Source: Candidatus Moraniibacteriota bacterium (lineage in GTDB: Bacteria; Patescibacteriota; Minisyncoccia; Moranbacterales; UBA1568). Taken from it: a DNA stretch of 64,000 bases. The position numbers were made by a program, and so were the translations under genes. The stretch spans positions 67,407 to 131,406 of the forward strand of contig JAYTWI010000009.1 of NCBI GenBank assembly GCA_043743535.1, given 5' to 3'. The notes beneath the pieces were generated by a model. The model had not been told where the DNA came from, did not search any database, and was given only the letters and a program-made list of their open reading frames with translations. Of the stretch, positions 832 to 50,145 are shown one piece after another. Each line of letters begins with the position of its first letter. Within the stretch, counting starts at the first letter, position 1.

Positions 832-1236
832 ATGGAAACAACGTACAAAAATTATCTTGGATTGGATTGGGGAGCTACCAAGGTAGGGGTGGCTCTGGCG
901 CATGAAGAAATCAGGACGGCATTGGCCTATGGTGTTCTCAAAAATGACGCTGTTCTGGTGAAAGGTATTGGATCTTTGATAGAAAAAGAAGCAATAGGAA
1001 CGATTGTTATCGGTATTCATAAGAGCGCCACTTTCCATGGGGAGCACGAGGGAGAGAAACTCGGAAAACTGCTTGGGGAGCAGTTAGGAGTGAAGGTGGC
1101 GTATCACGATGAAATGTTTACCAGCAAAATGGCTCAAAGTAACCTCATCGCTCAGGGGGAAAAACATGTTTCGGCTCATGACGATGCTGAAGCAGCGAGT
1201 ATCCTCCTCCAGTCATGGCTCGATAGAAAGAAATAG
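832..1236 (+). CDS. ruvX: RuvX/YqgF Holliday-junction resolvase-like putative pre-16S rRNA nuclease
   Basis: N-terminal LGLDWGATKVGVALA matches the YqgF family. Size is ~134 aa. ATG start at 832. Confidence 0.8.
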   Translation: METTYKNYLGLDWGATKVGVALAHEEIRTALAYGVLKNDAVLVKGIGSLIEKEAIGTIVIGIHKSATFHGEHEGEKLGKLLGEQLGVKVAYHDEMFTSKMAQSNLIAQGEKHVSAHDDAEAASILLQSWLDRKK

Positions 1237-1262
1237 GTTTAATAAATGGAAATGGAAAAGTT
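1199..1262. repeat. Direct repeat copy 1 (3' end of ruvX plus stop), ~63 bp
   Basis: GTATCCTCCTCCAGTCATGGCTCGATAGAAAGAAATAGGTTTAATAAATGGAAATGGAAAAGTT recurs at 2127-2189 with one mismatch and one 1-nt indel. Confidence 0.85.
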
Positions 1263-1273
1263 CAGACATCACG

Positions 1274-1302
1274 CTTGACTTTTCTTCTTTTTAGGTGTAC
1301 AA
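1274..1302 (+). promoter_or_regulatory. Putative sigma70-type promoter (-35 TTGACT, 17 bp spacer, extended -10 TGtACAAT)
   Basis: cTTGACTtttcttctttttaggTGtACAATatac lies directly downstream of direct-repeat copy 1. It resembles the native promoter after copy 2 (TGgTACAAT at ~2243-2251). Confidence 0.4.
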
Positions 1303-1326
1303 TATACAGTTCGTTAAAAATACCCA

Positions 1327-1428
1327 TTTTTGCCAGAGCCTCATATTTTTTTGTAGGTACAAATCGTATTACGATTGTGAAAACATTTGTACACGATATT
1401 TGAAAAGAAAATATGAGGCTCTGGCAAA
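1327..1428. repeat. Large inverted repeat: 22 bp perfect stem, ~58 nt loop with nested palindromes
   Basis: TTTGCCAGAGCCTCATATTTTT ... AAAAATATGAGGCTCTGGCAAA. Inside the loop, GTACAAAT/ATTTGTAC and ATCGTA/TACGAT are also palindromic. Confidence 0.7.
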
Positions 1429-1503
1429 CTCACTATCACAGTGAAAGGCTACGAGTAGAGGATGACGCCATGACACACGTCGTGACCCCATCGGATACCC
1501 CCC

Positions 1504-1962
1504 ATGACCATACTCCGGGTCGCGGCGGAAACCATGAGTGACATGCTCTGTCGCCACGTCACGGTCAACCGTGACCGGATCCCGCAAGCTGTCCTCGACG
1601 CCACTGGCCGCAGGCAGTACCTCAACCAAGCAGTTGTCTGTACCATGCCACGTGGCACGGGTGGCGAGACAGAAGTCTTTTTCTTCAAGAACGATGGCTA
1701 CGCCAGCGATGTGGAACTGAAGCAACAATTCACACTTCGTGGCCTTGTCCCTGTCGATCCGTACACGCTCGCCGCTGTGAATGAAACTGACCCGGCCTTC
1801 GCCGACACTTATCCAAATGCTACCCACTGGCAGGATGCGAATGGCAATTGGTGCTACGCGACCTTCGACCGGTGGGATGACGAGCGGAGCGTGGGTGTCT
1901 ACCGGTACGACGGTGACTGGGGTGACGGCTGGTGGTTTGCGGGTCTTCGCAAGGACACTTAG
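1504..1962 (+). CDS. Hypothetical protein encoded in foreign high-GC cassette (Trp/Asp/Gly-rich C-terminus ...DGDWGDGWWFAGLRKDT)
   Basis: 152 aa ORF with strong GC3 bias on the + strand. Local GC ~60% versus ~47% in flanking DNA. Followed by an intrinsic terminator. No family recognised. Confidence 0.55.
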   Translation: MTILRVAAETMSDMLCRHVTVNRDRIPQAVLDATGRRQYLNQAVVCTMPRGTGGETEVFFFKNDGYASDVELKQQFTLRGLVPVDPYTLAAVNETDPAFADTYPNATHWQDANGNWCYATFDRWDDERSVGVYRYDGDWGDGWWFAGLRKDT

Positions 1963-2015
1963 CGCTTCGCGCTTGATCTCTTGGGCCTGGACCTCGTTCT
2001 TCGGCTCTTTGAGTT

Positions 2016-2056
2016 CCCCTGTTGATTTGTAAATCAGTAGGGGTTTTATTTTTTTA
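2016..2056 (+). terminator. Rho-independent terminator of the cassette gene
   Basis: CCCCTGTTGATTTGTAAATCAGTAGGGG hairpin (one mismatch) followed by TTTTATTTTTTT. Confidence 0.6.
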
Positions 2057-2126
2057 AAAATCGTATATAGTAATTTTGATAGTAGGAGAATCTGTAGGAG
2101 ACTACGGCTACTTGCAGCCGAATCCC

Positions 2127-2189
2127 GTATCCTTCTCCAGTCATGGCTCGATAGAAAGAAATAGGTTTAATAAATGGAAATGGAAAGTT
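2127..2189. repeat. Direct repeat copy 2 (duplicate of ruvX 3' end)
   Basis: Matches 1199-1262. Contains a second in-frame copy of ...SWLDRKK* not attached to any ORF. Confidence 0.85.
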
Positions 2190-2265
2190 GGTGAGTTCTA
2201 GAATTCACCAATCCCCGTATGAAGTGCTTGAGTTGTAATTTTATGGTACAATACTGTTGTAAGTA

Positions 2266-3066
2266 GTGAGGATAATCTATCCGTATTTTTTTATGGAGAC
2301 ACCATATTTGTCAGTCATTGTCCCGGCTTATAAAGAAGGCGAGCGTATTGGACGTAACCTCTTGGAGATTGATAAGTATTTGAAGGGCAAGAACTACACC
2401 TATGAAATTATTGTGGTGGTAGATGGTTCACCTGATAATACGGCCGAAGTAGCACGTAATTATGCTCTGCAAATTCCGCATTTGCGAGTGATAGAAAATC
2501 TGGAAAATCACGGCAAAGGATATGTGGTACGGCAAGGACTGCTTGAAGCTGTCGGCAAGTACCGAGTTTTTCTTGATGCTGATGGTTCTACCTCTATCAC
2601 TCATTTAGAGACTTTTATGCCACAGATGGAGGCGGGTTTCGATGTGGTGATTGGTTCACGAAAAGTGGAAGGATCATTCGTGCAGGTTCACCAGCCTAAG
2701 TATCGAGAAGTTTTAGGCGAGGGCGGTAATTGGTTGATCCGGATTGTCCTTGGATTGTGGAGCTACCCCGATACCCAGACTGGTTTCAAGATGCTTTCTG
2801 GCGTGGGGGCACAGGAGGTAGCCAGTCGTATGGTGGTGGATCGTTTCGGTTTTGATTTCGAATTGATTGTTTTGGCCATGAAACTGGGTTTCAAAATCAA
2901 ACAGATGCCGGTGCGCTGGATGAACGAAGATGGGTCAACCGTGACCTTGACCGGTCCTAATGGTTATATCCAGGTGATCATTGATCTTTTCAAGACCAAA
3001 TGGCGTTTCCTCTCAGGTGCGTATCATATCAAAGACTATACCGATGGTATTAAAAAGTCAGCCTAA
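2266..3066 (+). CDS. Family 2 glycosyltransferase (dolichyl/polyprenyl-phosphate sugar synthase-like)
   Basis: LSVIVPAYKEGERI ... VVDGSPDNT ... FLDADGST is a GT-A DxD-type signature. The track start 2266 is GTG. The ATG at 2293 (METPYLSVIV) is the more likely start. Confidence 0.8.
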   Translation: MRIIYPYFFMETPYLSVIVPAYKEGERIGRNLLEIDKYLKGKNYTYEIIVVVDGSPDNTAEVARNYALQIPHLRVIENLENHGKGYVVRQGLLEAVGKYRVFLDADGSTSITHLETFMPQMEAGFDVVIGSRKVEGSFVQVHQPKYREVLGEGGNWLIRIVLGLWSYPDTQTGFKMLSGVGAQEVASRMVVDRFGFDFELIVLAMKLGFKIKQMPVRWMNEDGSTVTLTGPNGYIQVIIDLFKTKWRFLSGAYHIKDYTDGIKKSA

Positions 3067-3102: not shown

Positions 3103-4128
3103 ATGAGCAAAGGAGAAACAGAGAAAATTGAAAAGTCATCGAATGAAACCGAACTGCGTCAGGACATCGTCACTGGTGACTGGGTAGTGATTGCTACCGG
3201 CCGCGCCAAGCGCCCGGATGGTTTTGTTACAGTGGAGCGCGTGGCGTCTGTAGAGAGTATCGATCCTTTTGCTGATCCGGATCAGAGTGGTCAGGAAAAG
3301 GATGTCCTCGTGTATCGCCTTGATGATGGGGAGTGGAGTTTACGAGTCTTCCCTAACAAGTACCCGGCATTTTCACGTGGTCGGGTAGTAAAGGAGCTTT
3401 CTGAAGGCCCGTACTTTGCGATGAGCGGGGTTGGCTATCATGAGGTAGTGGTGACGCGCGATGCCCATAAGTCGCTCGCACAGTTGGAAACCTGGCAGGT
3501 AGCCGAAGTGATTGATGCTTACCAAGAGCGTTACCTAGCTCTCATGAACAAGAAAAGTGTTAACTATATTCAGGTTCTGCATAATCATGGCAAAGAAGCG
3601 GGTGCCTCACTCTCACACCCTCATTCGCAGATAATGGCTATTCCGGTCATCGCTCCTCATATCGAACTTGATTTGACGGGTGCGCATCGGTATTACGGAA
3701 GTCATAAAGAACGAGTGTTTAGTGTCATCGCAGAGTATGAAGTTAGCGTCAAGAAGCGTTTGGTATATGAGAATGAACATTTTATCGCATTCTGTCCCTT
3801 TGCCGCCCGCGCCAATTTCGAAGTATGGATCTTGGGCAAGCGTCCTAATCCTTATTTTGAACGAATTACCGACGAGGAAAAATTTGCCTGTGCCGAGGCT
3901 CTACAGCAGACGCTCCTAGCCCTCTATAAAGGGCTCTACGATCCAGCATACAATTTTTATATCCACACCGCTCCCTGTAACGGTCAGGATTACCCGTACT
4001 ATCAGTGGCACATCGAGATTTTGCCGCATACTTCAACCTGGGGCGGGATGGAGTTGTCAACCGGTATTGAAACGTCCACCATTGCGCCGGAGGCTGCAGC
4101 CGAGCATCTGCGCGAGCAATTAGCCTAA
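3103..4128 (+). CDS. Galactose-1-phosphate uridylyltransferase-like (HIT superfamily, GalT family)
   Basis: HPHSQI active-site motif (HxHxQ), VTGDWVVIATGRAKRP N-terminal region, ~340 aa. Confidence 0.7.
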   Translation: MSKGETEKIEKSSNETELRQDIVTGDWVVIATGRAKRPDGFVTVERVASVESIDPFADPDQSGQEKDVLVYRLDDGEWSLRVFPNKYPAFSRGRVVKELSEGPYFAMSGVGYHEVVVTRDAHKSLAQLETWQVAEVIDAYQERYLALMNKKSVNYIQVLHNHGKEAGASLSHPHSQIMAIPVIAPHIELDLTGAHRYYGSHKERVFSVIAEYEVSVKKRLVYENEHFIAFCPFAARANFEVWILGKRPNPYFERITDEEKFACAEALQQTLLALYKGLYDPAYNFYIHTAPCNGQDYPYYQWHIEILPHTSTWGGMELSTGIETSTIAPEAAAEHLREQLA

Positions 4129-4144
4129 ATGATTGACTGACCGT

Positions 4145-4951
4145 ATGAAGAAAAAATTTTTTGTCATTGGTAACCTCAAGATGAATATGCTCTCGTCTGA
4201 AGAAGCTCTCCAGTACGTTTCTGTTTTGAAGCGTGAGGCGGCCGGAAGAACATATCAATCGGTAACTGGAGTTATTTGTCCGTCGTACCCCTATCTGGGT
4301 GTTTTTGAGGAAATGCCAGGGTGGATAGAGAAAGGAGCGCAGAATGTCTTTTGGGAAAAGGGTGGTGCATATACAGGCGAGGTTTCTCCTCTTATGCTGA
4401 AGAATGCCGGAGTCAACTATGTCATCATCGGCCACAGTGAGCGCCGTACGTTTCAGGGAGAGACCAATGAAATAGTAAAGAAGAAAATAATTTGTGCCCT
4501 GAAGTATCTGCTCGTGCCAATCGTATGTATAGGCGAGACGAAGGAGGAGCGGCAGGCGGACGATACACTGCGTGTCCTCGAATTACAACTGCAAAGTATT
4601 TTTTCTGAGCTCTCCAAAATGCAGGCGGAAAAAATTATTATCGCTTACGAGCCGCGTTGGGCGGTCGGAACCGATCAGTTGCCGACGACGGAAGAGATTC
4701 TTCAGGTGAAGATATTGATACGGAAAATTTTGACGGAAAATTTTGATGCGGAACTGGGCGAGCGAGTGGTCGTGCTCTATGGCGGTTCGGTCAAAAGTTC
4801 ATTTCTTCCAGCCGTATCATTCGAAGCGGGAATGGATGGGGTGTTGGTCGGGAGAGAGAGTCTCTTTCCTTATGAGGTGATAAAGATGATGGATGTATTG
4901 GAAGAACACGCGCTTTTGGTCGCAGCCAAAAAGAATAAAGAGGTGAAATAA
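4145..4951 (+). CDS. tpiA: Triosephosphate isomerase
   Basis: VIGNLKMN, IGHSERR, AYEPRWAVGT and YGGSV motifs. The track start 4133 is TTG. ATG at 4145. Confidence 0.85.
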   Translation: MKKKFFVIGNLKMNMLSSEEALQYVSVLKREAAGRTYQSVTGVICPSYPYLGVFEEMPGWIEKGAQNVFWEKGGAYTGEVSPLMLKNAGVNYVIIGHSERRTFQGETNEIVKKKIICALKYLLVPIVCIGETKEERQADDTLRVLELQLQSIFSELSKMQAEKIIIAYEPRWAVGTDQLPTTEEILQVKILIRKILTENFDAELGERVVVLYGGSVKSSFLPAVSFEAGMDGVLVGRESLFPYEVIKMMDVLEEHALLVAAKKNKEVK

Positions 4952-4978
4952 GATGCTAACTATGCTAAGGAAAATGCT

Positions 4979-5859: not shown

Positions 5860-6864
5860 ATGACGGTACAACGTATTGCTATCAACGGTTTTGGGCGTAT
5901 TGGGCGAGCCGCTTTCAAAATTGCATTAGAAAAAAAGAATATTACGGTCGTCGCCATCAATGATTTGACGGACGCTTTTACTTTGGCACACCTCCTCAAG
6001 TATGATACAGCCTACGGGCACTACAAGAAAACAGTGACAGCAGAGAACGGGAAGTTGATTGTGGAGGGAGTCGAGATACCCGTTTTTGCTGAAGCGGATC
6101 CAAAAAAATTGCCATGGAAAGATCTGGCGGTGGACGTGGTGCTCGAATGTACGGGGCGTTTCACCGATCTTTCGGGAGCAACACAGCATATTACCGCCGG
6201 AGCTAAAAAAGTGATTCTTTCTGCGCCGGCCAAAGGCGATGATGGAGGGGTGCCTACCTATTTGATCGGGGTCAATGATACTGAATATAAAGGGGAGACG
6301 GTCATTTCCAATGCATCGTGTACGACAAATTCTTTGGCTCCAGTGGCCAAGATTATAAACGAACGTTTCGGTATTGCCAAAGCGCTCATGACTACCATTC
6401 ATTCCTACACCGGTGATCAAAATCTCGAGGATGGTCCGCACAGGGATCTGCGGCGAGCGCGCGCGGCCAGCCAAAATATCGTGCCTACTACCACGGGCGC
6501 AGCCATTGCGGTGACGCAAGTGATTCCAGAGCTCGCGGGACTTTTTGATGGGTATTCTATGCGGGTGCCGACTATTGTCGTGTCGCTCACGGATTTCACA
6601 TTCGTTCTCAAAAAGAAAACCACGGTAGAAGAAATGAATGACGTGTTGCGTCAGGCGGCGAGCGATCCTCGCTATCGCCAGGTGCTCGCGGTGACGGATG
6701 AGCCGTTAGTGTCGTCTGATTTTATCGGCAACCCCTTTTCTAGTATCGTTGATTTGTCTCTGACCAAGGTGATTGATGGTGATCTGGTCAAGGTTGTAGC
6801 CTGGTATGATAATGAGTGGGGCTACTCCAATCGATTGGTAGAAATGGTAGAAATGGTAGCATAA
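5860..6864 (+). CDS. gap: Glyceraldehyde-3-phosphate dehydrogenase
   Basis: INGFGRIGR Rossmann motif, SNASCTTN catalytic Cys, WYDNEWGYS C-terminal signature. Confidence 0.9.
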   Translation: MTVQRIAINGFGRIGRAAFKIALEKKNITVVAINDLTDAFTLAHLLKYDTAYGHYKKTVTAENGKLIVEGVEIPVFAEADPKKLPWKDLAVDVVLECTGRFTDLSGATQHITAGAKKVILSAPAKGDDGGVPTYLIGVNDTEYKGETVISNASCTTNSLAPVAKIINERFGIAKALMTTIHSYTGDQNLEDGPHRDLRRARAASQNIVPTTTGAAIAVTQVIPELAGLFDGYSMRVPTIVVSLTDFTFVLKKKTTVEEMNDVLRQAASDPRYRQVLAVTDEPLVSSDFIGNPFSSIVDLSLTKVIDGDLVKVVAWYDNEWGYSNRLVEMVEMVA

Positions 6865-46923: not shown

Positions 46924-47013
46924 ATGAAGAAATTTGCAGGAAAAGTAGCTGTTATTACTGGCGTCAGTCGCAAGAAAGGCATCGGTTTTGCTGTGGCAAG
47001 GCGAGTACCTTGA
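46924..47013 (+). pseudogene. N-terminal fragment of a short-chain dehydrogenase/reductase (Rossmann GxxxGxG region only)
   Basis: MKKFAGKVAVITGVSRKKGIGFAVARR then a stop. The Rossmann fold does not continue in any frame. Confidence 0.55.
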
Positions 47014-47122
47014 AGCAGGATTGAGAAATTTTTTCGTCAGGAAAAATATTCGTGATCTAATCCGGTTGTTTCATCTCTGTTTATAAAAATAACCCTCGTC
47101 AGAGAATCATTTTTGGGATCAG

Positions 47123-47713
47123 ATGAAGTCTATAAATAAGTTTGAAAATTTACCCCAAGCTTCGCCCAATTATATGAACGCAATTATTCTTCATGGAACA
47201 GGAACAAAGAATAATGAATTTTGGTTTCCATATTTGAAAAAAGAACTAGAATCATTGGGCTACGAAGTATGGCTTCCGCAACTTCCTAACGATGAATGCC
47301 CAAACCTGAATAATTGGCTCCCGTTTATCTTTTCAAATGGAAAATTTACTAAAGACACTATTCTTATCGGTCATTCGGCAGGATCTCAAGTAATTCTCAG
47401 TGTCCTTGAGAATATCGATGTTACTATAAAGAAAGCTATTTTAGTATCTGGTTACGCTAAAACGTTACGGAAAAATACAAAGGGTGAAAAAGTCGAAGGT
47501 GAACCGAACTGGAGAGTTATTAAACTACATGCCAAAGAATTTATTTTTATCAATTCGGATAATGATCCTTGGGGCTGTGATGACACGCAAGGGAGGATGA
47601 TGCAAGAAAACCTTGGCGGACAATTGATTATTCGCCATGATGGTCATATGGGGTCAACCACATATAATCAGCCCTACAAAGAGTTTCCGCTTCTGGTAGA
47701 ATTAGTGAAATAG
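47123..47713 (+). CDS. Alpha/beta-hydrolase, YdeN/RBBP9-like serine hydrolase family
   Basis: ILHGTGTKNNEFWFP..., GHSAGS nucleophile elbow, C-terminal D and H residues. 196 aa. Confidence 0.65.
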   Translation: MKSINKFENLPQASPNYMNAIILHGTGTKNNEFWFPYLKKELESLGYEVWLPQLPNDECPNLNNWLPFIFSNGKFTKDTILIGHSAGSQVILSVLENIDVTIKKAILVSGYAKTLRKNTKGEKVEGEPNWRVIKLHAKEFIFINSDNDPWGCDDTQGRMMQENLGGQLIIRHDGHMGSTTYNQPYKEFPLLVELVK

Positions 47714-47862
47714 TTTCCAACGTGAATTCTCCTCAGAGTCTTAGTGCTTATGACCCAACCAAATATATTCTTCATCACTGGAGTAAATGGCGTAGGGGAA
47801 AGTATGCTTATTTTTTAGAATTTTGTATTAAGACAGAAGCAGCACATTATATTCCTTGATTT

Positions 47863-48423
47863 ATGACCGAACCAAGGAAACCAAAACTTATCATCATCAA
47901 CGGAGCTTTGGGAGTGGGAAAAACCACTCTGGCGGAGCGCTATGCAAGTGGACATCCTTTGACGTTACAGATTGATATTGATGAAGTGCGGAGGCATATT
48001 AGCTTCTGGCGAGAAGAAAAAGAAATATCTGGGACGCTCTCCAAGCAGATTGCTTGCGAAATGGCACGGGCACATCTCTTGTCTTTCCATGATGTGGTGG
48101 TGTCGCAGATATTTACTCAATCAGCGTATTTGGAACAATTGGAAGCTATCGCCCAAGCATGTGGAGCCGAGTTTCATGAATTTCTTTTGTTTCTTCCTCG
48201 TGAAGAAGCGGTAACACGGTTCGTGAAACGAGGCCAAAGAAAGGGCTATCCAGATGGCTTCCGTCCAGGTGGATTAGTAGATCTCGGAGGAAGAGAAAAA
48301 AAGGTACTGCAAATGTACGACGATATGATGGCTATGATTTCGCAAAGACCAGAGACTAAAGTAATAGATTCTCAAGAAGGCGAGATAGTAGCTACCTATA
48401 AGACCTTGATAGAGAATCTCTAG
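47863..48423 (+). CDS. P-loop kinase, chloramphenicol-phosphotransferase/AAA_33-like family
   Basis: LIIINGALGVGKTTLA Walker A at the N-terminus. ~186 aa, typical for the small CPT-like kinases. Confidence 0.6.
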   Translation: MTEPRKPKLIIINGALGVGKTTLAERYASGHPLTLQIDIDEVRRHISFWREEKEISGTLSKQIACEMARAHLLSFHDVVVSQIFTQSAYLEQLEAIAQACGAEFHEFLLFLPREEAVTRFVKRGQRKGYPDGFRPGGLVDLGGREKKVLQMYDDMMAMISQRPETKVIDSQEGEIVATYKTLIENL

Positions 48424-48977: not shown

Positions 48978-49018
48978 CAACTGTGGTATTAGCGCTAATC
49001 ATTAGAAGTGATAAAATT

Positions 49019-49792
49019 ATGAACAAAGAAGTAGCGAATGAAATCGCGGTTGGAGTAATTGTGTTAATTGTAGTAATTGTCGGCGGTGTTTTTTGGATGC
49101 AAAGTGAAAAACAAGTAGCTAATAATGTACAACCGGTTATACAGGTTCCTGTTGTACAAAAAGAAGTACAGCCACAACAACAAACGCAACAGGTGAAGCC
49201 TGTGGATGAAGCTGTAAATTGGCAAGCATACGAAAACGAAAAATTTGGGTTTAAATTCAAATATCCAAATAATTTAGAGACTGAGCAAAATATGAACGTA
49301 GATTATTTTTCTCTTTCGATTGGAAATAAAGTACGACCCACGCCATCATCAGATTATTTTGTTGACTCCACCTTTTTGATGGAAGTTAAAAAAACAAATT
49401 TCAAAGATATAAATAGCTGGTTCTTTCATTTCAAGAAAGACTTTGAAAAGCCTTCCAATTACGAAGGTTACATAATTCACCCGATAGTCAACGACGTTGA
49501 GAATTTTAAAATAGACAATCTAGACGCGAAGAAATATATCCCAAATGAGGGAACATTTCCTTTTTATGACAGGTGCGTTGTGTTTATTAAGAGTGGATTT
49601 GAATATTCTTTTTGCTACAGCGGTGTATTGAATGATGATGAAAAAAATTTAGCAATAATTAAAAAAGACGAGTATGGCGCAAATCAGTATGATGACAACT
49701 TAATTGAATCCATAAAAAATGGCTACAGAGAAAAATTTGATCTGATCATTTCAACTATAAAATTTACGAAAAAAGACGAAACAGCTAATTAG
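49019..49792 (+). CDS. Hypothetical membrane-anchored protein with Gln/Pro/Val-rich linker (AT-rich orphan gene)
   Basis: ATG at 49019 just after the tRNA (the track ORF from 48920 overlaps the tRNA). TM IAVGVIVLIVVIVGGVFWM. Local GC ~33%. Confidence 0.55.
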   Translation: MNKEVANEIAVGVIVLIVVIVGGVFWMQSEKQVANNVQPVIQVPVVQKEVQPQQQTQQVKPVDEAVNWQAYENEKFGFKFKYPNNLETEQNMNVDYFSLSIGNKVRPTPSSDYFVDSTFLMEVKKTNFKDINSWFFHFKKDFEKPSNYEGYIIHPIVNDVENFKIDNLDAKKYIPNEGTFPFYDRCVVFIKSGFEYSFCYSGVLNDDEKNLAIIKKDEYGANQYDDNLIESIKNGYREKFDLIISTIKFTKKDETAN

Positions 49793-49881
49793 CAGACATA
49801 TAAAAATACGGGATTTTCTTGTTTGGGGTGACAGCGAATGGCCCGGGGGCGGAAGCCCTGAGAGAGCGGAGCGAGTTAAAT

Positions 49882-49897
49882 TCCCGATCAACGGCTC
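49882..49897 (+). repeat. 16 bp direct duplicate of the tRNA-Thr(GGU) 3' end
   Basis: TCCCGATCAACGGCTC is identical to 48963-48978 in the tRNA. Confidence 0.75.
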
Positions 49898-49983
49898 CAG
49901 TAAGTCGCCTGAGAGAGGTTGCGTATTGACGAAAAAGTCGTTTTCCCGTACAGTGGAAAGGCTTTATATTACTGACATTTCCT

Positions 49984-50145
49984 ATGGGCAAGATCAAGGA
50001 CAACATGGCGAAGCTGAAGTGTAGCCTGTGTGGGCGCATCACCCATTACACCAAGCGTAATAAGAAGAAGGTGAAAGAAAAACTCTCCCTCTCCAAATAT
50101 TGCCGCTTCTGCAAGAAGAACGCCACCCACACCGAGAGCAAATAG
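49984..50145 (+). CDS. rpmG: 50S ribosomal protein L33
   Basis: MGKIKDNMAKLKCSLCGRITHYTKRNKKKVKEKLSLSKYCRFCKKNATHTESK, with four-Cys zinc ribbon and L33 length. Candidate promoter TTGACG-17-TACAGT at ~49927-49955. Confidence 0.8.
   Translation: MGKIKDNMAKLKCSLCGRITHYTKRNKKKVKEKLSLSKYCRFCKKNATHTESK

Follow-up and report, generated by a model that had tools for sequence, protein, structure and literature searches.

The closest described systems to the locus analysed here are the target proteins of the diversity-generating retroelements (DGRs) of Patescibacteria, or Candidate Phyla Radiation (CPR), which are represented by clade 2 of Roux et al. 2021 (PMC8144416) and by the CPR DGRs collected by Wu et al. 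2018 (PMC5758913); remote targets are among them. CPR DGRs whose targets have no recognisable domains are documented (PMC8144416; PMC5758913). We analysed a 64-kb stretch of contig JAYTWI010000009.1 (the window, meaning the whole stretch) in which a small cassette with one sizeable open reading frame (ORF, 1504-1962) lies between ruvX and the glycosyltransferase gene GT2. The ORF belongs to a family that has in common with CPR DGR targets a C-terminal variable region (VR) on a putative C-type-lectin-like (CLec-like) scaffold, adenine-specific differences between the VR and its template repeat (TR), and a reverse transcriptase (RT) and Avd beside many of its copies; like the targets reported in PMC8144416, it has no recognisable Pfam domain. 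The copy in the window departs from these targets in three respects: TR, RT and Avd are all absent from the 64 kb, its 5' part has suffered a deletion with a frameshift, and a duplicated end of a host gene brackets it. We consider it likely that a target-carrying fragment of a Patescibacteria DGR was inserted between ruvX and GT2 by recombinase-independent illegitimate recombination.

No sequence similarity was detectable between the family and the prototype DGR variable proteins, Mtd of Bordetella phage BPP-1 and TvpA of Treponema denticola. In comparison with these prototypes the family protein is small (~200 aa) and has an N-terminal two-helix hairpin, and neither a signal peptide nor a phage context was detected. 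In a limited search of the DGR literature, footprints of duplicated gene ends, GC enrichment across a whole gene and leader hairpins were not mentioned. In what follows, coordinates without a locus label are positions in the window and L-numbers designate comparison loci.

The homology search proposed in the initial annotation of this DNA was carried out and gave 199 homologues of the ORF, at 52-63% identity and nearly all of about 200 aa; those that carry a name were all from metagenome-assembled genomes (MAGs) of Patescibacteria. A profile search brought together 1,515 clusters at 50% identity, and a scan of species-representative genomes yielded 80 family loci, all of Patescibacteria type (L001-L080, with the family gene typically at about 3840-4460 of the locus). 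An RT of about 310-350 aa was located 3' of the family gene in 36 of the 80 loci, and a small four-helix protein encoded on the opposite strand was additionally present in about 20. These two proteins matched RVT_1 and bAvd above the Pfam cut-offs, and the best NCBIfam match of the small protein was the DGR Avd model. In L006 (4935-5309, minus strand), L063 (4920-5291, minus strand) and about 18 other loci, avd occupies the interval from the TR to the RT gene and is encoded on the opposite strand. When only the 66 homologous loci with enough flanking sequence were counted, these DGR genes adjoined the family gene in 31, while neither an RT nor a TR accompanied it in 32 (solo copies).

A downstream repeat of the last ~100 nt of the gene, 350-450 nt away, was present in 42 loci, and about 40 of these showed an adenine-specific pattern. 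In the homologues, 602 of the 622 mismatches between VR and TR fell at TR adenines, which is the defining signature of a DGR. The ORF family is the variable (target) protein of a Patescibacteria DGR. RT and target identities were correlated across the loci (Mantel r 0.47), and the VR of the family is carried by a putative CLec-like fold. Foldseek against the PDB gave no significant match for the family protein, and searches of Pfam, NCBIfam, PHROGs, PADLOC and the PDB sequences with the ORF or the family returned nothing usable. The scan of IMG/VR gave zero relatives of the family, and a phage origin is therefore unsupported.

Two other identities were considered for the cassette and rejected. 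An IS200/IS605-type element was rejected on the grounds of no Pfam match, no HUH motif or conserved tyrosine among the invariant residues, and the putative CLec-like fold. An integron gene cassette was rejected since the insert has its own promoter and since the palindrome lies 5' of the ORF and forms a covarying leader structure, with G-U pairs on the sense strand, not an attC site.

Solo copies can be genuine remote targets, since the VR of one of them fits a distant TR. The solo copy L005 (4001-4414), which has a different N-terminal domain, lies on the same 652-kb Moranbacteria contig as L010, at a distance of 207 kb. All 15 mismatches between the L005 VR and the L010 TR (4869-4965) were located at adenines, and L005 is thus a clear remote (trans) target of the L010 DGR.

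The features of the window that bear on the insertion are the following.

832-1236, plus strand: ruvX, an intact host gene with a duplicated 3' end (Pfam RuvX, E 7.7e-20; adjoins GT2 in the relatives with an empty site).
1199-1262, plus strand: copy 1 of the direct repeat, comprising the last 38 nt of ruvX with its stop codon and 26 nt of spacer.
1275-1303, plus strand: cassette promoter, TTGACT-17-TACAAT with TG in front (10 of 12 matches; similar near-consensus promoters stand at the same place upstream of family members).
1320-1472, plus strand: 5' leader conserved in the family, with a hairpin, ending in GAGGATGACGCCATG (Shine-Dalgarno sequence and the original start codon at 1470).
1470-1541, plus strand: what is left of the original frame, MTHVVTPSD (1470-1496), followed beyond the deletion junction by a shifted frame that runs to the stop at 1541.
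1504-1962, plus strand: 152-aa ORF, encoding the end of helix 2 and a complete putative C-type-lectin-like domain of a DGR variable protein, with no Shine-Dalgarno sequence.
1852-1952, plus strand: VR of the target, alignable to the TRs of other loci.
2016-2053, plus strand: terminator hairpin (2016-2043) and T run of the target-gene transcription unit (same layout after the stop codon in family members).
2078-2132, plus strand: initial ~55 nt of the conserved DGR RNA region, GATAGTAGGAGAATC...GCCGAATCCCGTATCC, cut at the junction (aligns to GGTAGTAGGCGA...GCCGAATCCAGTATCCAT).
2127-2132, plus strand: right-junction microhomology GTATCC, present in ruvX as in the DGR motif (with the family consensus it extends to the 7 nt AGTATCC; ruvX sequence at 1197-1204).
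2127-2189, plus strand: copy 2 of the direct repeat, the displaced ruvX 3' end, unattached to any gene.
2244-2252, plus strand: native -10 box of the GT2 promoter, TGGTACAAT (kept in the empty-site relatives L081 and L082).
2293-3066, plus strand: GT2, a dolichyl-phosphate beta-glucosyltransferase-like host gene 3' of the insertion (Pfam Glycos_transf_2).

The unit, 928 bp in length, is a DGR fragment in which the target transcription unit is followed by the initial ~55 nt of the adjacent DGR RNA region, without TR, Avd or RT. In relatives with a complete DGR, the RT reverse-transcribes the TR RNA, makes errors at adenines, and the resulting cDNA replaces the final ~100 nt of the target gene. 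In complete DGRs the terminator of the target gene is followed by a motif made of a -10-like box, GGTAGTAGGCGA, a short hairpin and GCCGAATCCAGTATCCAT, which is probably the start of the DGR (TR) RNA and was located at three other loci.

L001:4544-4634: DGR RNA-region motif.
L010:4571-4661: DGR RNA-region motif.
L042:4561-4651: DGR RNA-region motif.

Positions 2078-2132 of the window aligned to this motif between the terminator and the TR, and the similarity stopped at GTATCC, the first 6 nt of repeat copy 2. As the motif is cut off before the TR, the insert is a DGR fragment severed between the VR and the TR. With regard to the initiation of mutagenic homing sequences (IMH and IMH*) and the inverted repeat expected after a VR, a conserved spacer and a GC-rich hairpin 3' of the stop codon were found in the window as in the homologues. 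No RT, Avd, TR or second family member was found in the 64-kb window, and a search for a TR-like repeat of 1781-2060 gave none anywhere in it. The comparison of the window VR with the TR of L044 showed that 13 of 20 mismatches were at TR adenines, and the window VR had diversified codons at the AAC positions of foreign (related) TRs.

The window copy nearly matched L042 in its leader, its start context GAGGATGACGCCATG and its nine initial codons (MTHVVTPSD), with identity over at least 33 nt at the gene start, after which sequence is missing. The window gene is a net 128 nt shorter than that of L042, which is not a multiple of 3, and this loss near the 5' end brings the original frame to a stop at 1541. 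The ORF 1504-1962 has no Shine-Dalgarno sequence in front of it. From the early stop and the missing ribosome-binding site we infer that the window copy is a solo and probably decaying target, or at best a remote target, in truncated form, of a DGR located beyond the window. Its status as a pseudogene is presumptive, because short forms reduced to the CLec domain recur within the family. No family member more than 63% identical to the window ORF was present in the protein collection; the source copy is therefore not in this assembled genome, which favours acquisition from another Patescibacterium.

The direct repeat was as the initial annotation had described it, about 63 bp with one mismatch and one indel. 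In an ungapped comparison 59 of 60 nt agree between 1199-1258 and 2127-2186, and with one gap 1199-1262 and 2127-2189 align over 64 columns at 96.9%; the longest exact shared stretch is 52 nt, and the single mismatch, at 1206 (CTC versus CTT), is synonymous. Chance could not yield a 63/64-nt repeat of this kind. Also borne out were a cassette with its own promoter, one ORF and a terminator, and the lack of an integrase in the element, whose only sizeable ORF is the target gene. The inverted repeat is present too, with arms of 24 nt (1329-1352 and 1405-1428, 52 nt apart) that are 96% complementary.

Alignment of the ruvX-GT2 junction in relatives revealed an empty site with a single copy of the repeat. 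In L081-L083, in which the GT2 protein is 95% identical, and in L084 and L085, in which it is 85% identical, ruvX is directly followed by GT2, with a single ruvX 3' end and no insert. The empty site was thus found in five contigs at two levels of divergence, and there were no filled relatives among them. The GT2 protein of the window was 100% identical to P0121, and the GT2 homologues carry Moranbacteria names. The cassette is an insertion relative to the closest relatives. The -10 box TGGTACAAT of GT2 and the leader after it were conserved in the insert-free relatives and are therefore native; the idea that this promoter is a diverged duplicate of the cassette promoter had to be abandoned. 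The ruvX gene was 69% identical in nucleotides to that of L081 (3435-3845), while its neighbours map, GT2 and galT were 85-89% identical. This low identity is no more than suggestive of a recombination tract, as ruvX appears to be fast-evolving also in the comparison of L081 with L084.

An independent data set contained both contexts of the repeat. Two Logan contigs (k=31) of run SRR23617269 carry identical ruvX and GT2; L087 ends at about position 1236 of the window and L086 starts at about 2157. Both breakpoints are where a 31-mer falls wholly within the exact 52-nt repeat, so that the contigs break inside both of its copies.

The window's GT2-galT-tpi block was also found, by homologous proteins, in the Patescibacteria-type locus L064, where a family gene, a TR and avd lie just after tpi, with no RT within 4 kb of downstream sequence. 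DGR loci thus sit at different places in this conserved neighbourhood.

The inverted repeat of the window is the local version of a leader hairpin located upstream of most family members. In an alignment of 34 sequences, 92% of the cells were paired and 12 of 17 pairs showed compensatory changes. These values were reached in none of 500 shuffles (0/500), and shifted registers fell to 36-50% paired. The G-U pairs of the hairpin are on the sense strand, which indicates an RNA structure. The covariance model R1 had its sole match in the window at this place (50.2 bits, the window sequence having been part of the training alignment), and the leader covariance model matched only upstream of family genes, in about 43 loci. 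Rfam 15 gave only sub-threshold miRNA-hairpin noise in the window and nothing at E<=1 in 16 homologous loci or in L031. Examples of the leader are L031:3721-3841 and L048:3729-3847, with a hairpin of the GGTCATAGCGAAAAG...CTCGCTATGACC type. The start context GGAGATGACGCCATG is almost invariant and in many members yields a three-codon upstream ORF, ATGACGCCATGA.

We then compared the window with other loci in which a solo copy is accompanied by a duplicated upstream end. The duplicated sequence is the 3' end of folD in L042, the 3' end of a class-I aldolase gene in L060, and an upstream terminator in L065 and in L080.

L042:3550-3653 / 4792-4895: duplicated folD 3' end.
L060:3022-3213 / 4632-4823: duplicated class-I aldolase 3' end.

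The flanking repeats in these unrelated assemblies have diverged to 85-95%. The gap between repeat and gene ranged over 114-635 nt on the left side and 35-339 nt on the right side (window, L042, L060, L065, L072 and L080). The right junctions of two independent solo insertions, those of the window and L060, fall within about 9 nt of each other in the CCGAATCCAGTATCC motif, a closeness that could be due to chance, as only six loci are comparable. The repeat copies of L060 showed 19 synonymous and 9 non-synonymous differences (pN/pS 0.14), and those of L042 showed 6 and 3, respectively (pN/pS 0.18). No such flanking duplications were found around the 31 complete DGRs, except for a 59-nt three-copy repeat in L035, with one copy upstream of the target (3356-3414) and two downstream of the RT of the complete DGR (6502-6557 and 6736-6794); either an insertion footprint or a small family of repeats could account for it.

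Two further flanking repeats were rejected as duplications of a host gene end, since they are duplicated promoters or leaders. The repeat of L048 (3621-3747 / 4696-4821) is a second copy of the cassette promoter with a hairpin-less leader, located 3' of the target gene, and that of L043 (3782-3819 / 4522-4560) is a second copy of the cassette's own promoter, likewise 3' of the target gene.

The lack of an integrase, the variable boundaries of the inserts and the GTATCC microhomology together suggest that the insertion was illegitimate and independent of a recombinase. The donor would be another Patescibacterium, from which the DGR fragment would have entered the ruvX-GT2 spacer of a Moranbacteria-like genome, either by template switching during replication or repair or by joining at a staggered break. 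By re-entering the host sequence at GTATCC, a microhomology that lies 63 nt 5' of the point of exit, the event would have duplicated the ruvX 3' end while ruvX itself stayed intact. Two known processes come close: templated insertion or duplication mediated by microhomology, through template switching of the fork stalling and template switching (FoSTeS) or microhomology-mediated break-induced replication (MMBIR) type, and homology-facilitated illegitimate recombination in transformation. With these the window shares a duplication of tens of nucleotides, a junction with a microhomology of 6-7 nt, variable breakpoints and no dedicated recombinase, although here the mechanism is deduced from one junction. 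For the latter, duplication of the recipient DNA rather than its deletion is atypical.

Several points weigh against this reading. The repeats of L060 and L042 seem to fit better with two functional alleles of different lineages than with neutral remnants, and these insertions, possibly also that of the window, could have arisen by Campbell-type integration or by later allelic replacement. Donor sequence for a comparison is available at the right junction only, and the microhomology refers to that junction. The window copy has no TR or RT in the 64-kb window, so that its membership in a DGR is based on homology and on the VR pattern with no cognate template, and the truncated ORF may not be dead, given the recurrent CLec-only short forms.

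The serious rival to illegitimate insertion is a homologous integration of the Campbell type, which we nevertheless regard as unlikely. A circular or donor DNA from a related strain, in which the cassette already stood after ruvX, would have brought in the cassette with the ~63-bp ruvX 3' end, and a crossover with the resident ruvX end by host homologous recombination would have left direct repeats without any integrase. The mainly synonymous differences between the copies in L060 and L042, as if these were functional ends in separate lineages, argue for it, as do the synonymous nature of the sole coding difference in the window repeat and the low identity of ruvX to that of L081, with its hint of a recombination tract. 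However, it still requires an earlier illegitimate join of the DGR motif to ruvX at GTATCC, and the cassette stands after ruvX in no relative among the 80 loci. In addition, the repeats of the window are 98% identical although the whole ruvX is only 69% identical to that of the nearest relative, and the other genomes involve different host genes.

An assembly artefact, in which a chimeric join or a mis-resolved repeat made the two-copy arrangement, is very improbable. The sequence does come from a metagenome assembly, the exact shared stretch is just 52 nt, and the Logan contigs break at the repeat, as a strain mixture could also make them do. However, the two copies are not identical (a mismatch and an indel), the right junction is a biologically sensible microhomology in a family motif, and the same architecture, with repeats of 85-95%, occurs in unrelated assemblies where k-mer collapse is impossible.

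We give equally little credence to an ancestral cassette that was precisely deleted in the relatives by recombination between its repeats. Such recombination between the 63-bp repeats would restore exactly the empty site that was observed. However, that site was empty in all five contigs, at both levels of divergence, and the cassette has no close relative. Moreover, identity between the repeats is 98%, against a strong divergence of the intergenic sequence from that of L081, so that the duplication is young.

The initial annotation had proposed a decayed or miniature integrative cassette, that is, a site-specific element that restores the gene end and is mobilised by an integrase encoded elsewhere. 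Phage 21 and e14, which integrate into the 3' end of icd in Escherichia coli, encode an integrase and use one fixed site. As with these, the 3' end of a protein gene is duplicated in the window and the gene is left intact, and the copies in L060 and L042 also differ mainly synonymously; the repeats resemble attL and attR, the relatives have an empty site, and a like footprint occurs at the folD and aldolase genes elsewhere. In contrast to phage 21 and e14, the window and the comparable loci have no integrase, their target genes differ and their insert boundaries vary, and the ORF has no match in Pfam, NCBIfam, PHROGs or PADLOC. The right end of the insert is an arbitrary breakpoint within the DGR RNA motif, with a 6-7-nt microhomology, and its content is a fragment of a larger element that is not of a mobile type. 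A truncated DGR piece takes the place of the integrative cassette, which is even less probable than an artefact or an ancestral insertion.

We also examined the composition of the cassette. The ORF had a GC content of 58.8%, against 48.3 +/- 3.6% for 53 ORFs of the window, of which it was the most GC-rich, and a GC content at third codon positions (GC3) of 67.8% against 51.4 +/- 6.1%, so that the profile proposed earlier does show an outlier in both measures. The GC-rich part of the insert is limited to about 1440-2000, and the promoter and leader (1263-1440) have 33-40% GC; the view of a cassette far richer in GC than its flanks holds for the former part and not for the whole insert. In 79 of the 80 genomes the family gene was richer in GC than its flanks, by a mean of 12.5 points and at host GC contents of 33-58% (in one example 62.9% against 38.4%, with a GC3 of 0.85). 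The excess forms a sharply bounded island of ~600 bp that starts and stops at the gene borders, and the GC content of the adjacent RT is host-like (in L044, 30% for the RT and 57% for the target). High GC is intrinsic to the family gene, and as the excess is family-wide, confined to the gene and not shared by the RT, it carries no information on the donor.

At the third codon positions both A3 and T3 fell and C3 rose most, on which grounds off-target DGR mutagenesis, which would deplete adenine specifically, was rejected as the cause of the GC excess. Translational selection as its sole cause is unlikely, as the ORF tops the GC3 values of the window, one other ORF comes near (0.64) and the rest of the top 12 do not exceed 0.59.

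A host-to-symbiont transfer from high-GC Actinobacteria into a Saccharibacteria-like epibiont, which the initial annotation had read from the composition contrast (58.8% against 48.3% GC) and which has this contrast alone in its favour, is barely credible: the homologues are all in Patescibacteria-type MAGs with zero in IMG/VR, the GC excess is seen throughout the family, which also has its own specific promoter, leader and DGR RNA motif, and the genome is Moranbacteria-like by its GT2 homologues.

An antisense ORF was located at 1369-1827 (minus strand) of the window, and antisense ORFs of 205-250 aa were found in 15 loci (for example L021:3782-4534). They extend over the entire target gene, in some cases exceeding it in length, and are most likely a by-product of GC3-rich codon usage. 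Elsewhere in the window, the kilobases 47001-48000 and 49001-50000 are AT-rich (GC 0.38 and 0.36, against about 0.47) and adjoin the tRNA genes Thr, Tyr, Thr, Trp and Glu (46.4-50.4 kb).

The insertion carries a gene of a kind already known; there is modest novelty in its footprint, in the GC island seen across the family and in the leader RNA. Three linked possibilities may be raised together, though only tentatively and with considerable doubt. The target cassettes of Patescibacteria could be semi-autonomous, repeatedly copied as solo units to the 3' ends of housekeeping genes in a recombinase-independent manner, with a tendency to break in CCGAATCCAGTATCC and possibly a link to transcription, R-loops or RT activity; the GC enrichment could be a mutational or selective signature linked to the DGR; and the leader hairpin could be a new regulatory RNA of DGR targets. 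For the reading of Patescibacteria genomes, a GC island does not amount to transfer from a high-GC host, since an island of a single gene may be no more than the sign of a DGR target. Solo DGR targets that spread without obvious mobile-element machinery would leave as footprints a microhomology junction and a duplicated end of a host gene. For the DGRs of the Candidate Phyla Radiation, the gene-confined GC enrichment, the covarying leader hairpin and the motif at the start of the DGR RNA are three testable features of the whole family.

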